Assembly (NCBI GenBank): GCA_965215565.1
Contig: CBDCDZ010000004.1
Location: 1,536,001-1,600,000 of the forward strand
Source: Trueperaceae bacterium
GTDB lineage: Bacteria > Deinococcota > Deinococci > Deinococcales > Trueperaceae
Reading direction: 5' to 3'
Length of the DNA stretch: 64,000 nt
In this document: positions 12,001-24,000 of the stretch, one piece after another
Layout of the letters: each line of letters begins with the position of its first letter
Position numbering within the stretch: position 1 is the first letter of the stretch
Program-made: the position numbers

Positions 12001-15000
12001 CAGTCTCAGCCGGACGCGCAAGTGTTCTTGGAGGCGTGGTTCAAGGAGCGGGCGGCGGAGAAGATCACGCCTCTAGTGCGAGAGGTCGCAGAGAATTTAG
12101 GGGTAGCCTATAACCGCATCATGATCTCTGACTTGCAGTACCGCTGGGGCTCGTGTACGCCTAATGACAACCTCAACTTCAACTGGCGGCTGATCCGAGC
12201 CCCGATGTTTGTTATTAGGTACGTCGTCGCGCACGAGCTGACGCATCTTTTAGAGCCAAACCACACACCTCGGTTCTGGAACATCGTTCATGTACAGGTG
12301 CCGCGCTACGCTAGGGCTAAAGCGTGGCTGAAAGCGCATGGACTGACATTATACAAAGGGGTCTAGCATGTGCTCCTTCACCGCAAGGATGCTTGGATCG
12401 TCCTGATGGTTTAACTCAGCTCATAGCGGTCTAACAACATCATTCTCTTTCATTGTGACTATATGGTCGATGTTTTTGAAGTTTTGGGCGTTCGAAAAAT
12501 CTGCTGTGGGGTCTCGTTTTGCGAGCCGATATAGCATCAGTCTGAGAAAAAGAGCTCGCCAGTCTTTATTCTGCTGCTTGCCTATTTTCTTAGTCTTGGC
12601 AACCGATTGAGGAAACGCTCGCCAGAGTACGCCCCAGGTAAATTCGCAATCAAAGTAGGCTTTTCTGTAACGATAGTGAGTTGTTCGGCTAACTTTCCAA
12701 CGGCTACACACCCTGTCAATAGAGCGAGAATTGTAGTGCTGATCAAACAGAATCAAGGCCATAAGCGGCTTATTGAGCTTGAGAGGACGACCTCGCCCGT
12801 CGAGTTCAAAGATTTTAGATATAGTGCTTGGATTCCCTCGTTTGTAGTTAGTTGACTGATTTTTTGACGCAAGGCTGCCACAGGGGTGATGGCATTGGCG
12901 GAGCCAGTTCGGAAAATTGATTCTAGTTGGGTGACGACCACCGCGCTGATACGCTGTTGCGGCAGATCGGTGTGGACGGAAGGTCCTACAGCCATGAGGT
13001 TTGTGGAAACTCTCCGTATGCACTCTTATGTTCGGAATGTTGTTGAGGAACCTTGTCAGATAACGTACAAAGATGGCGCTGGAAAGACTCGCCGTTACAC
13101 TCCCGATTTCCTCGTCGTATACGAATTGCCGGAGGAATATAGCTACTCCTCCACTGTCCTCTATGAGATTAAGTGGTCTGGCGACTTACGTGAGAACTAC
13201 GAAAAATACGAGGAACGCTTTGCGGCGGCATATAAGTATGCCGCTGAGCGTGGCTGGCGCTTTCGTGTAATTACCGAGAAGCGCATAGACCGTTATCATC
13301 GCTCCGCCACGCTTTTACATCGCTTCCTGCGCCGCAAACTCGAATACGAACACGTGAGATACGTTCTCGATACTGTCACGTTAGAGCCGGGCATCACAGC
13401 TCACGATTTTCTAGATGCGGAGTTGAGCCCCGTCGATCCCTTTAACTTGCTTACGACTATCTGGACGTTACTCGCGCGTGAGCAGATCAGCGCGGAGTTA
13501 GAGGGCGGCATAACAAATCGGACACCCTTATTCCCGGCTCGCGCCGGAAATCCTTGGGCTAGACCTGTCCTATGAGCCGTTTAAGACTGTTGGCGCGCAC
13601 CAAAGTGTCTTACGCAGGCTATGACTGGGAGATCGTAACAGTAGATAACAGACAGAAGCTTACATCTCTAAAGCGCGAAAATGGAATCACTTGCCTCGCG
13701 CCGACTTCGGAACTCGGTTCACCTGGTCGACATAAAATACCTGTTCCAAGCGAATACGAAGCGCTGCCTGAAAACATAAAGAATCTTTACGGTGATCTAG
13801 TAGCCTTAGACCGAACCGCAAAGGACAAGGAGCGCTTAGCCAAAAAAAACAGCTGTAGTAGGTCCACCGTCTACCGCCAACTCGAGAAGGCAAGAAGAGG
13901 TCCTGAAGAACTCAAGCGGAAACGGCGTGCGGACTTCGGAAACTCCAGCTTCGAGACGAGAGTCAAAGATATTATTGAGGCCGAAGTCAAAAGGGCACCT
14001 GCGTTTAGGAGCAACAGGGAAATCGCCAAACGTGCATTGAACGAGATGCACAAGCCGGACAAGGACGACAAGTACATAGAGAAAATTCCGAGCAAGTCGA
14101 CAGTACTTCGGTATGTGAGTCGGGAGCGCGGCAAGGTGCCTTACGATCCTTCCAAAGACGCACCCCATGTCAAACCGATACACCCCTTTGATGAACTCGA
14201 GATGGATTCGACTCAGGCAGATACCTATGTCGTATATGACGACTATAAGGAGGGTCGCCCCTGGCTTACATCAGTCGTTGAGGTTCTAACCGGTCTGCGG
14301 TGGATACTTGTCACGCGCGAAGAACCTAGCTCGCGTATAACAGGGTTGCTTATCATCATGGTCGTATTCGGTTTGGACCTCCCGCACGTTAAAAACAAAC
14401 CTCCGAACGGTTTATTTGAAAAGCTGTTGGTAGTGGCTCACCTCAGACTGCCAACCTTAACCTCCAGGTTGTAGCTAACGAGGAACATATGCAGGCAGAT
14501 CAGGCAGATAAGGTGCATGTGCTGGGCTTTAGAGAAGGACAAGGTCTTTCTGACAAAGCGGGCGAGGCGCTGACGAATTGTGTTGTTGAAACGTTCAACG
14601 TGAGCCGTAAGTCCAGTTTCTTTGCCGACAGCCTGATGTTGCTCGTCGGGGATAACAGCTTGATAAGCTTCCCAAAAGTCACTGAAGACGAGACCTTTTT
14701 TGTAGGCGTTAGGTACGTTGCCCCAAAGCTTCTTGCACGTAGCGCTACCGCGTCCTCCTATGACGCAAGCAACGACTTGCCTGGTCTGTTTGCAAAGAGC
14801 CAGCCATATCCAGAGCTTTTTAGCTTTGCAGCTTACAAACGACCACATTTCGTCGAGTTCAAGCTCTACAGCTCCAGGTACTTTAGGAGCTATGAGTGTA
14901 TCGCTAAGGGGAGGCGTTATCTTGGCTTTTTTTGAGCCAGGCGTCCAGTGTGTTACGTGATATCCCAAACGTTCTAGCGACACCGCGCATACTAGAGCGC

Positions 15001-21000: not shown

Positions 21001-24000
21001 GGTCTGCTTCTTACGAAGGCAGTAGACTTAGGGGTATAAAATTTTCGCGAATTCCATCATAATAGAGTTGTTTCCGCACGCGCGGGGGTGAACGGCCCAG
21101 GTTGGCCAGACCGGGATCCAGTCCCAATATATTCCCCGTGCGAGTGGAGACGGAACAAAAATATCAGCGAGATAAATAATACAACCACTCAAACGCTGTC
21201 AAGCGCCAGTACCGATCTTTTAGATTAAAGCCAAAGCTGTGACCCGCGCTCTGGGATTCGATCATCTTCTGAAGCCTCTTATTATAACGCAAGTTGTCCA
21301 GCAACTGCCTAGACTTAAAATGAATCGTATTGCGAGGCGAAGAGATAACTGCTTCAATAAGAGCGTCGTGAAAGTGGTAAAGGTCATCATCAATCCATCC
21401 GACGGGTTCGGTAGGCGCGTCTGCTAAATCATCACCACAGCAGTAACAGTAGCATTCAGAGTTCCACCGTTGCTCGTGACGGGCGTAGATATCAACTTGA
21501 GCACCACACTCCGCACAATCATCTCGAAGAAGACAGCGATGAATGCTGCACACTTCAACGACATCAACGTACCAAACTTTTCGAAACCACCTGAACTCGA
21601 AACAGCAGAGCGGGCAGAAGCGCGGCGTTTTCCGAATCACTCGCGACGCCGAACCAGAACAACCCAGTTCTCCTACTCGCCTCGGAATCAGGGCGTCCAA
21701 GATGATTGACTCATCGGCCTGAACTCCATCGGCTAGGACGGAATAAAGATTCGACCGCTTTGCTTTGATGATGTCAGGTGCGTTAGAAATACCATAAACC
21801 CTATGAGATTTCTTCAACCGAGCTATGAATCGTTCGACTGAAAGACCGTTGCCGTAACTCAGTCTGGCAAGGTAGGAAGTAAAGGCTTCGCCTTCATCGG
21901 GTTTGTCTCTAAACGCCCACACTACATATCATGTCATTAGTGTAGACTGCAAAGGTGAGTTTCAAGTACTGTTCGCAAATAACTCGATTCAATTCGCAAA
22001 TAGCGTGATTTTTGACAAGAGCCAACCCCAAACGCCAAGAAACCCTCATCGTCGTCGGACTTGACCCCGGCTTAGCCAACTTGGGCCTGGGCGCGATTCG
22101 CGAAACGGGCAAAGAGGTCACGCATTTAGGCAGCACGCTGGTACGTACAAACAGCCGCACGGATCAAGCGGAGCGTTTGGCGGCGATTTACACCGAGATG
22201 ACCGACTTCTTGAAGGCGCATCGCCCCGACGTGCTCGCCATCGAAGGGCAGTATTTTCACCGCCAGCGCGACGTGGCGTTTAAGGTAGGGCAGGCTTTGG
22301 GCGTGTGCCTTTTAGCCGCGCAGCAACAGGGCGTCGAGACCGTTGAGTACGGACCGATGCAGGTCAAGCAGGCGCTCGTGGGCACGGGGCGCGCGAGCAA
22401 GGCCCAGGTGGGCTACATGGTTCGCGCCATGTTAGGTCTCACCCAGACCCCCGAGAGCCACCACGTCGCCGACGCGCTCGCGCTCGCGCTGACGCATCTG
22501 AGCGCGCGGCAACTGCAGTCGCTGGGTTAATCGGACGAAGAGGTTGCGGTCTCCTCTCTCGTTTCGGCTGATTCAGGCTTGTCCGAGCCTTCTTCCTTCT
22601 TAGTCTTCGCACCGGTTTTCTCCGTAGTTGTTTTCTTCGCCGTGGTCTGCTTAGTTGCGGTCTTTTTCGCCTCTACCTTCTCAGCGTGGGCTTTTTCGCC
22701 GGCGGATTTTTTTGCGCCATTCTTCGTTTCTGCCTTTTTCGTCCCTGCCTTTTTTGCTGTAGACTTCTTGGCGGACGCTTTCGCCGTCTTCTTCACTTTG
22801 GACTTAGGCTTGTCCTCTTCTAAAAGTCCATCGACTCTGTACTCCGAACGCGCTTCCGCCGCCGCGAAGTCTTTGAGCCCCTGGTGAATCTTTTTCAGCC
22901 CCGCGTCAATCTCTTTCGCTTTCAGCACGCTCAAGTTGAGAATGGCGACGCAGGCGAGGCGCGCGGTGAGTTCGCGGTAGGATTCTTTGTTGAAGTAGCG
23001 CACCCCTTCGTGCGCGTTGACGCCTAAGAAGGTCTGCGCCTCTTCGTCATCCATAAGGAGTTCGAGCAGTTTTTCAGCGGGCTTTCGGTCCTCGTCTTCT
23101 AGCTCGTACCAGTTCTTGTAGCGCACCAGGAGTTTAACGAGACGTAACACGCGCTCAGCGTTTAAGCCTAAATCGCCAAAGACATTCTCGATAACTCTAT
23201 CCAAACGCCAGCGATAAATCGCGGTGAGGCTCGCCTCGTTCGAACCGTCGCCCGTGAGGTGTCCGAGCGCGTGCACGCTAAGCCAGGCGTAGAGGCTGCC
23301 GCTCATCTCTGGGGTGAGGTTATCGGAGAGGATGGACTCGACTTCTCCACCCTTCTTGAACTTGGGCGCGAGGGTATTCAGGGAAGGGAGCGGCAGCAGT
23401 TGCCCGAGTTCGGTGGTGAAGCGCTCCAAAAGAGGTTGTGTGTCGCCCGTCCGCGCCTCCTCAGGAATGAAGTTTAGAGTCGCCTCTAAAAACGCTCCGT
23501 AATGTTCCGGCAAGGTTGCTTGCGCTTTGCTCTGACCCCTCTCGCTCTGCACCCGGCTGCGCAAACCGAGGATAACCTCTTTGCTGAGCACGTTGCTAAA
23601 AGCATCGTGGAGCGGTTGTAAGCGTAAGAACGCAATCTCTTCTTCGATGCTCGGCACGCCGCGGCCGCCGAGTTGGTCGTGAATTTTGGCGTAGGTGCCG
23701 TCATGATCGTGGGCTTCGCGAAAGTCTAAGAATACCTGGTACTTGAAAGCTTCTAATTCCAGATAGAACCCGTTCGCCAAATCCGTGCTTCGGCGGATGA
23801 ACTCCAAGTTCGACACCTGATCGCGGAAAATCGTGAAGTCGTTTCCGTGCGCCCGGAGACCGAGCCCAGCTTTGAGGTCACGCGAGGGCTGCATCCCGCC
23901 CTCTTTGGTGGCGTGCGGCGCGGCGTCTTTGATCCAGCCCTTAGCCTGTGAAAATTTGTTGTTAAAAACGACCAAAGAGGCTCTGTCACCCACGCGGTTC

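Follow-up and report, generated by a model that had tools for sequence, protein, structure and literature searches.

The stretch of DNA analysed here (the window) comprises 64,000 nt from a Trueperaceae bacterium (assembly GCA_965215565.1, contig CBDCDZ010000004.1, positions 1,536,001-1,600,000); coordinates refer to the window unless stated to be those of the contig. It carries, in order, tnsA, tnsB (split by an IS1 element), tnsC, cas8e-cas11, cas7, cas5, cas6, a one-spacer array, an inverted tniQ and a Tn7-type transposon end (Table 1). Pfam and NCBIfam searches confirm the gene set and order proposed in the initial annotation, except that tnsA begins at 12886 and not at 13018.

Table 1. 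Features of the Tn7-like element and its surroundings in the window.
Feature	Coordinates	Strand	Evidence
Type I restriction-modification genes (hsdS, hsdR in two frames) and YgjP-like protease	7212..12366	+	Pfam
tnsA, 229 aa	12886..13575	+	PF08722, E 8e-19
tnsB 5' part, first DDE aspartate	13572..14428	+	aligns with G054 TnsB
IS1-family element inside tnsB, 8-bp duplication	14429..15213	-	PF03400, PF03811
tnsB 3' part, second Asp and Glu of DDE, Mu-transposase C-terminal domain	15214..16083	+	PF09299, motif columns
tnsC, TniB-type AAA+ ATPase, Walker A and B intact	16085..17053	+	PF05621, E 9e-34
cas8e-cas11 fusion, one in-frame TGA at 17608-17610	17047..18744	+	PF09481, PF09485
cas7e	18741..19850	+	PF09344, E 4e-47; TIGR01869 below cut-off
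cas5e	19817..20449	+	TIGR01868 above cut-off
cas6e	20437..21039	+	TIGR01907 at cut-off, PF08798
I-E type repeat, 7-bp stem, 4-nt loop	21067..21095	+	
Homing spacer against ruvC; 33 nt if last repeat read in register	21096..21127	+	
Degenerate (atypical) terminal repeat, in register from 21129	21129..21157	+	
Small tniQ, 252 aa, zinc-finger cysteines, without TnsD-like extension	21164..21922	-	PF06527, E 3e-11
Transposon end: TGT terminus, 8 bp, two 19-bp sites (22009-21991, 21988-21970)	21970..22017	-	
Host ruvC, attachment gene	22012..22530	+	PF02075, E 3e-43
Protospacer in ruvC, 24/32; PAM AGG at 22088-22086	22054..22085	-	

The locus thus unites tnsA, tnsB (interrupted), tnsC and tniQ, as do CRISPR-associated transposons (CASTs) of the Tn7-like kind. 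Alignment of TnsA, with one control row disregarded because its excision was out of frame, showed that the PDF and EIK motifs are kept and that Ala replaces the second Glu of the ES..E motif, a residue whose role we take to be that known from Tn7 TnsA; no useful solved relative of TnsA was found by sequence. TnsB possesses the DDE residues despite the interruption of its gene, and the IS1 element has near-identical copies (99%) elsewhere in the genome. An insertion-free tnsB allele, previously claimed for another sample, was recovered as a joint in run X3, encoding 573 aa with no stop. PDB matches to TniQ are TniQ chains.

Only type I-E Cascade families were matched above cut-off, and the I-F set (Cas8/5f, Cas7f, Cas6f) was not found. 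Cas8e, Cas11e, Cas7e, Cas5e and Cas6e are accompanied by a repeat with a 7-bp stem and an AAG-type PAM, as expected of type I-E; cas3, cas1 and cas2 were not found at the window locus. The Cas8e-Cas11 fusion is colinear with the unbroken 590-aa protein of the relative G054 as well as with P0007 and P0008. Its in-frame stop had been described as confirmed by run X1. The stop is indeed present in X1, which offers no independent confirmation because it is probably the source sample. A ribosome-binding motif for an internal start, from which free Cas11 could be made, occurs in the window and in G275 and is absent from G054. An AlphaFold model of Cas8e-Cas11 was set aside (mean pLDDT 40).

The short array consists of the repeat, spacer and degenerate last repeat reported initially, the latter folding weakly (-4.4 kcal/mol, no better than shuffled sequences). 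In the 4.49-Mb genome, the sole match of the spacer at up to nine mismatches is ruvC, at 24/32 and with an adjoining AGG, as had been claimed for up to eight mismatches; the triplet reads AAG in both congeners. One mismatch falls in the seed (position 5) and five lie off the sixth positions. Since 1 of 20 shuffled spacers reached eight mismatches somewhere in the genome, a genome-wide match alone is not rare. When the comparison was confined to 20 kb around the array, none of 300 shuffled spacers reached the match.

The likeness to both congeners resumes at contig 1558018-1558020, after the terminal ACA, and about 40 kb before contig 1558018 is absent from both, in agreement with the initial annotation. 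The restriction-modification genes and YgjP-like protease within this stretch are possible element cargo. The window end shares its register with the ends of G054 and G001, and provides ruvC with an in-frame TTG start. A left end was sought in the window with exact motifs, scans allowing mismatches, a pair of weight matrices and the upstream sequence of the congeners, and none was found; nor was a target duplication. Unequal end-to-protospacer distances (36 against about 24 bp) had previously been noted. The value of 36 bp holds for this assembly, while that of 24 bp, assigned to a relative termed intact, is in fact 42 bp. A contig from run X4 (another study, depth 5.6) is longer by eight bases and keeps the native ruvC ATG, which makes the distance 44 bp, hence the window spacing is explained by an 8-bp junction deletion. 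The distances in the four like-built loci (42, 43, 42 or 44, and 44 bp) therefore agree, with protospacer and PAM set at a constant spacing from the end and facing it the same way. With tnsB interrupted, a stop in cas8e-cas11, the junction deletion and no left end found, the window copy is a relic.

No clean member exists among the like-built loci. The 590-aa Cas8e-Cas11 of G054, the relative termed intact, is unbroken, but its TnsC Walker motifs are degenerate: the Walker B acidic pair is missing, leaving it the sole row without Asp among 28, and Walker A is odd. G054 retains both ends, which carry 2 and 4 sites of TnsB type, as well as a tandem copy of the right end. It shows a perfect 4-bp target duplication, which would be 5 bp only had one T been lost. 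Two further like-built loci, in G001 and G018, are remnants with no tnsABC alongside.

To place the locus within its phylum, we considered 364 genomes and found TniQ with a Cas3-less I-E Cascade at 10 loci. Of 20 regions fetched, 8 have Cascade and TniQ, and 12 were dropped for lack of a cas hit. The last spacer matches the host gene beside the element at 8 of the 10 loci, each time a different gene: ruvC, arginase, a Dam-type methylase, pilT, comEA-like, NFACT, rtcB and comM (comEA-like and rtcB presumably, by sequence likeness and not a family search). The element in G278 splits comM with a 5-bp duplication. The PAM is AAG at six of these loci, AAA at one and AGG at one. Shuffled spacers never reached the match in 300 trials at seven loci and did so once in 300 at the eighth, and 12 canonical host spacers used as controls gave at best 11-14 mismatches in their own 20 kb. 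Codon wobble falls at spacer positions 3, 6 and 9 in 8/8 loci, and 33 of the 43 spacer mismatches are at multiples of 3. G028 has no convincing adjacent target for its last spacer, and G273 is without flank sequence. No cas3 or cas1 hit was obtained in the stretches of nine relatives. The first spacer of G054 has no convincing target among 128 genomes, and non-terminal spacers of a second group of loci, searched in their own contigs only, have at best 10-12 mismatches. An alignment search with Cas8-Cas11 yielded 3 genome and 27 metagenome loci, dropped as canonical because tns was hit in 0/30 and cas3 in 28/30. A plasmid search gave two Thermus casA hits, both canonical, and two scans of viral contigs found no relative.

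The locus resembles I-F3 CASTs (Tn6677, Tn6900) in combining TnsA, TnsB, TnsC and a small TniQ with a Cascade lacking Cas3, Cas1 and Cas2, and in its terminal, wobble-phased homing spacer with an atypical repeat. I-F3 homing spacers are reported to tolerate up to 10 mismatches and to be wobble-phased, in the same register as our eight loci (10.1101/2020.07.02.184150); insertion about 42-46 bp past the target (PMC11300857) is likewise alike. In contrast to I-F3, the window element has I-E subunits (Cas8e, Cas11e, Cas7e, Cas5e, Cas6e), a 7-bp-stem repeat, an AAG PAM, a Cas8e-Cas11 fusion and tniQ inverted behind the array. The Streptomyces telomeric TnsBC I-E CAST (I-E5) also links an I-E Cascade to TnsB and TnsC without cas1-cas2. 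I-E5 is described as one-ended, without TnsA and TniQ, with intact Cas3 and no end-adjacent protospacer (10.1101/2024.11.13.623437; PMC12669027). The system here, by contrast, has TnsA and TniQ, an adjacent protospacer and, where testable, two ends; at the window locus itself TnsA and TniQ are present and Cas3 was not found. Like the locus here, CASTs of types I-B and I-D join a type I Cascade to a Tn7-like core that includes TniQ, but the Cascade differs. The PAM-to-insertion distance here is 74-76 bp; I-D inserts 75 +/- 6 bp from the PAM (PMC9881144). Rybarski et al. also proposed that a Cas3-less I-E Cascade serves a mobile element; its partner there is an Rpn nuclease (10.1101/2021.08.16.456562), whereas here it is a set of Tn7 proteins.

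Taken together, the data make it highly probable that the window holds a homing CAST, i.e. a Tn7-like transposon aimed by an I-E Cascade together with TnsA and TniQ. This reading, already advanced in the initial annotation, is supported by the 8/10 independent loci at which the last spacer fits the adjacent gene, with codon phase, orientation and PAM in common. None of these loci showed an additional large TnsD next to Cascade, which points to homing by RNA guidance. Counting against the reading are the decay in every like-built member, the missing left end and duplication in the window, the 4-bp duplication of G054, the seed mismatch and the five mismatches off the sixth positions in the window spacer, the lack of a convincing target in G028 and of a flank in G273, and a Cas7 tree in which the like-built loci are not resolved as one group. 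From the observed anatomy, ends, targets, PAM, phase and spacing, and borrowing crRNA processing, TniQ-Cascade contact and transposition from known CASTs, we propose that a Tn7-like transposon took up a type I-E Cascade and has since lost cas3, cas1 and cas2. By analogy, Cas6e would cut the short array, and Cascade loaded with the last crRNA would bind, without cutting, at a site that adjoins an AAG-type PAM and lies close to an end of a conserved host gene (for the window, the 5' part of ruvC). The small TniQ, presumably located at the PAM-distal end, would recruit TnsC, and TnsA/TnsB would then insert the element in one set orientation, some 42-44 bp beyond the protospacer, leaving the gene mostly unharmed. 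A model of the G054 pair hints at the predicted Cas6-TniQ contact (score 0.33 against 0.00 for the best of 3 controls; contacts shared between runs, 93% or more; pLDDT of the partner, 79 or more). The mark it reached was attained by 116/157 solved and 2/215 mismatched pairs, although at scores up to 0.60 these are only 18/157 solved and both mismatched pairs, and comparable I-F3 complexes have solved structures.

Might Cascade instead be cargo serving to repress or guard the host gene next to it as a natural CRISPRi, the transposon site being found by protein alone? Cas3-less I-E Cascades can only bind, and the targets are host genes. However, the eight targets are unrelated, lie in sense or antisense, and always point at the element from a near-fixed distance, while TniQ is small and without a TnsD-like extension; we regard this explanation as very improbable. 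That the spacers were acquired from the flank after insertion by host Cas1-Cas2, then drifted and have no targeting role is hardly credible. The host does have a canonical I-E system, which includes cas1 and has repeats of a similar kind, and cas1 occurs in 4/5 member genomes searched, but the mismatches sit at wobble positions with the phase kept in 8/8, which argues that the spacers copy orthologues from other hosts. Furthermore, the G054 spacer fits G005 (31/32) better than its own genome (30/32), it is always the last spacer that matches, and control spacers show nothing.

A further possibility concerns the RNA-guided element itself, which might not move by cut-and-paste if TnsA or TnsC is inactive, with replicative transposition, help in trans or a tyrosine-recombinase-like gene taking over. 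The Glu missing from window TnsA and the degenerate TnsC of G054 point this way, as do a 564-aa PF00589 gene by tnsA in G054 and two other tnsABC-tniQ elements in the host. Against this, G054 TnsA and window TnsC keep their motifs, so that the losses look like separate decay, and neither in the window nor in the second group does the recombinase-like gene adjoin tnsA; we consider this alternative unlikely.

In the 2025 classification, Tn7-like CASTs are I-F, I-B, I-D, I-C and IV-A, and the sole I-E CAST is without TniQ and with Cas3 (PMC12669027); an I-E Cascade with TnsA and TniQ was not found in the literature searched, consistent with the earlier claim of an undescribed combination. If true, a TniQ-coupled I-E CAST would fill this gap with the best-studied Cascade, make the adaptation of TniQ to a new Cascade testable and provide a candidate tool for RNA-guided insertion that uses another PAM, for which the eight natural spacer-target pairs supply PAM, spacing and orientation beforehand. 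A wider claim, which we somewhat favour, is that I-E Cascade was domesticated, within one phylum, by Tn7-like transposons that carry TniQ and belong to two unrelated transposase lineages, neither in print and each with RNA-guided homing, and that one or more of the unbroken members would be active as programmable integrases that use an AAG PAM. The two separate lineages would allow the course of domestication to be compared. The second build comprises six loci with a separate TnsB lineage, among them the comM-splitting element of G278, and in the same claim is characterised by a Cas5 that is short, a Cas11 that is frequently absent, and ends not beginning TG. The frames of G036 and G278, both of this build, are unbroken. 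In FastTree phylogenies, Cas7 does not resolve the like-built loci into a single group, and their Cas5 stands apart from canonical systems (FastTree 91).

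The Tn7-like element of the window, which joins a Cas3-less type I-E Cascade to tniQ, is a real feature. Beyond tniQ lies a Tn7-type end that opens with TGT, followed after 8 bp by two 19-bp sites with a spacing of 21 bp. The best genomic match of the window spacer is to the adjacent ruvC (24 of 32 positions, adjoining AGG), a score equalled by 1 of 20 shuffled spacers genome-wide and by none of 300 inside 20 kb. Both congeners have no element and read AAG at the PAM position; their likeness to the window restarts at the base directly after the element end.

Genes and array of the window element (window positions)
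Feature	Position	Strand	Basis
tnsA	12886-13575	+	Pfam
tnsB, split by an IS1 copy	13572-16083	+	
tnsC	16085-17053	+	
cas8e-cas11 (one in-frame TGA), then cas7, cas5, cas6		+	Pfam, NCBIfam
repeat-spacer-repeat unit on the plus strand, 3' of cas6			
tniQ, beyond the array		-	

A lone 19-bp site resembling the TnsB sites of the end (17581-17599, just 5' of the cas8e stop) may be due to chance. At 18205-18235, a ribosome-binding motif precedes an in-frame GTG/ATG from which translation would yield a Cas11 of 170 aa; the motif is not kept in the related genome G054.

Loci built like that of the window (group A) were found in three further genomes. G054 was the intersection of a TnsC search (5 of 128 family genomes matched) and a Cas7 search (17 of 128). 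It has the same gene order, an unbroken Cas8e-Cas11 of 590 aa and three repeats, and its last spacer agrees at 30 of 32 positions with the 3' end of a gene for arginase, next to AAG. Its proteins share only 24-44% identity with those of the window. The right end contains two sites and the left end, 49 kb off, four. The left end abuts a second, tandem right end (L052:1370-1560), suggesting repeated insertion at one site. The large cargo genes before this region presumably resemble a phosphorothioation defence cluster. The target duplication is four bases, or five if one T was lost. Walker A and B are degenerate in TnsC (L020:9457-10392), which counts against activity, with the remainder of the element unbroken. 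Divergent from tnsA is a gene for a 564-aa tyrosine-recombinase-domain protein (L020:12963-14657), which may act as a TnsF-like factor or belong to the cargo.

The other two group A genomes emerged when Cas8 hits, in 100 of 364 phylum genomes, were compared with TniQ hits, in 68 of the 364. The congener G001 retains a remnant (partial cas5, cas6, array, tniQ and end) targeting a Dam-type methylase gene (29/32, AAG, 43 bp from protospacer to end). In G018, cas8e and cas11 are separate and cas7 is frameshifted; the target is pilT (26/32, AAG, 42 or 44 bp). More fused Cas8e-Cas11 proteins are known as sequences lacking genomic context (P0002, P0003, P0007, P0008, P0053).

The same comparison yielded six loci from another family (L144, L145, L146, L147, L148, L149; group B), which form a second lineage. 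Their order is tnsA-tnsB-tnsC-tniQ-cas6-array-cas8e-(cas11)-cas7-short cas5, with two contigs cut, in cas7 (G265) and in tniQ (G273). Cas5 comprises only 144-171 aa, a separate cas11 frame is absent in four loci, and Cas8e-Cas11 is fused in G275. For group B Cas7, 11 clusters were found at E below 1e-110. In four of the six, the match of the last spacer is in the gene located upstream of tnsA; no convincing target was found for that of G028, and the G273 contig lacks the flank. The G278 element splits comM, the halves lying on two contigs (L148:4054-4085, L197:5440-5480); five A's are duplicated (5 bp), and 48 bp separate a 32-nt protospacer from the end beyond it. A similar end is present in G036 at 51 bp, near the point where the empty sites of five congeners diverge. 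These ends begin with TAT or TAG and not TG, those of G278 with TAT. A sequence that is multicopy in G272 and G273 lies 18 bp past the G275 protospacer (L149:274-310) and masks the element end. Downstream of cas5, G036 and G028 share a set of four small genes without a Pfam family (L145:2025-4195, L146:14189-16294), with relatives in G273 and G278.

Over both groups, the last spacer has an adjacent match in 8 of 10 loci, with AAG (six), AAA (one) or AGG (one) as PAM and all eight protospacers pointing towards the element. Shuffles never equalled the match at seven loci (0/300) and did so once at G278 (1/300; 27-nt spacer), while 12 canonical host spacers used as controls had 11-14 mismatches. 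With spacer starts assigned by us from repeats and matches, codon position 3 falls at spacer positions 3, 6 and 9 in all eight (six sense and two antisense targets). This phase is in part tied to the PAM, because an in-frame AAG/AAA codon as PAM imposes it on sense targets. Among 43 mismatches, 19 occupy positions divisible by 6, 14 occupy positions divisible by 3 but not by 6, and 10 lie elsewhere. The wobble register and mismatch tolerance are as in I-F3 homing spacers, for which the part of 10.1101/2020.07.02.184150 consulted describes the same codon register and 10 tolerated mismatches.

A single clade for groups A and B was rejected for TnsB (AU p 2.6e-81; 13 rows, one short row omitted), and the closest relatives of group B TnsB belong to elements that carry two TniQ genes and gave no cas hit. 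Cascade may have been captured once or twice. In FastTree trees with long branches, Cas5 places A (91) and B (100) apart, Cas6 unites eight of nine A and B rows (91), and Cas7 gives no resolved grouping; the unpublished genome G110 is one control row in the Cas trees, on which no claim depends.

The window element is not a member of I-E5, the published Streptomyces telomeric TnsBC element with a I-E Cascade, or of I-F3. The CASTs named in the covered sections of Makarova et al. 2025 (PMC12669027; including a term search of three supplement files, one scanned file aside) are I-F3, I-B2, I-D, I-C, IV-A, Mu-linked I-A and I-E5. There, and in the covered part of Hsieh et al. (10.1101/2024.11.13.623437), I-E5 lacks TniQ and retains Cas3, whereas the window element has TniQ; Hsieh et al. 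found no protospacers beside I-E5 ends in the part covered. The main text of Faure et al. 2023 (PMC10293859) contains no occurrence of I-E, and the covered text of Rybarski et al. ties Cas3-less I-E to Rpn. A TniQ-coupled I-E CAST was not found in full-text literature searches; subscription papers, preprint supplements and patents lie outside this scope and may bear on novelty.

With parts, ends, targets and spacing as observed, the window element very probably works like a homing Tn7-like CAST. By analogy with I-F3 and I-D CASTs (compared using parts of PMC11300857 on I-F3 insertion distance and PMC9881144 on an I-D CAST), Cas6e would mature the crRNA and Cascade would bind the target without cutting. 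The small TniQ at the PAM-distal end would then load TnsC, and TnsAB would insert about 42-44 bp further in group A and about 48-51 bp in group B. A model of G054 Cas6-TniQ scored 0.33 against 0.00 for the best control (runs agreeing in at least 93% of contacts, partner pLDDT of 79 or more), weakly suggesting a contact. In calibration, the mark used was reached by 116 of the 157 solved pairs and by 2 of the 215 mismatched ones; with scores of 0.60 or under, it was reached by only 18 of the 157 and by both mismatches, and like complexes have already been solved.

The window copy itself is best read as a relic. Its TnsA misses one conserved Glu, which counts against activity, and the cas8e stop is also present in the public run X1, probably the source sample. 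The initial annotation had proposed that an IS-free tnsB allele exists elsewhere, and run X3 indeed holds the tnsB joint without IS1; the IS1-free frame encodes 573 aa and keeps D, D and E at the conserved alignment positions. In run X4, which belongs to a different study, one contig carries 8 extra junction bases, among them the native ruvC ATG, which puts the original protospacer-to-end distance at 44 bp; the X4 sequence has a 1023-bp skip in cas8e and indels in tniQ. In the window, the element end supplies ruvC with an in-frame TTG (22012-22017) after an 8-bp junction deletion took the native ATG. The left end was not found by motif, mismatch or weight-matrix scans or in the congeners' upstream sequence.

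At a distance of 2.8 Mb from the element, the host encodes another, canonical I-E system, which includes cas3, cas1 and two arrays. Two more tnsA-tnsB-tnsC-tniQ elements (L058, L059) without cas genes are present in this genome, as are three additional TniQ-like matches, and in the type I restriction system next to the element, hsdR is split between two frames (8546-11679).
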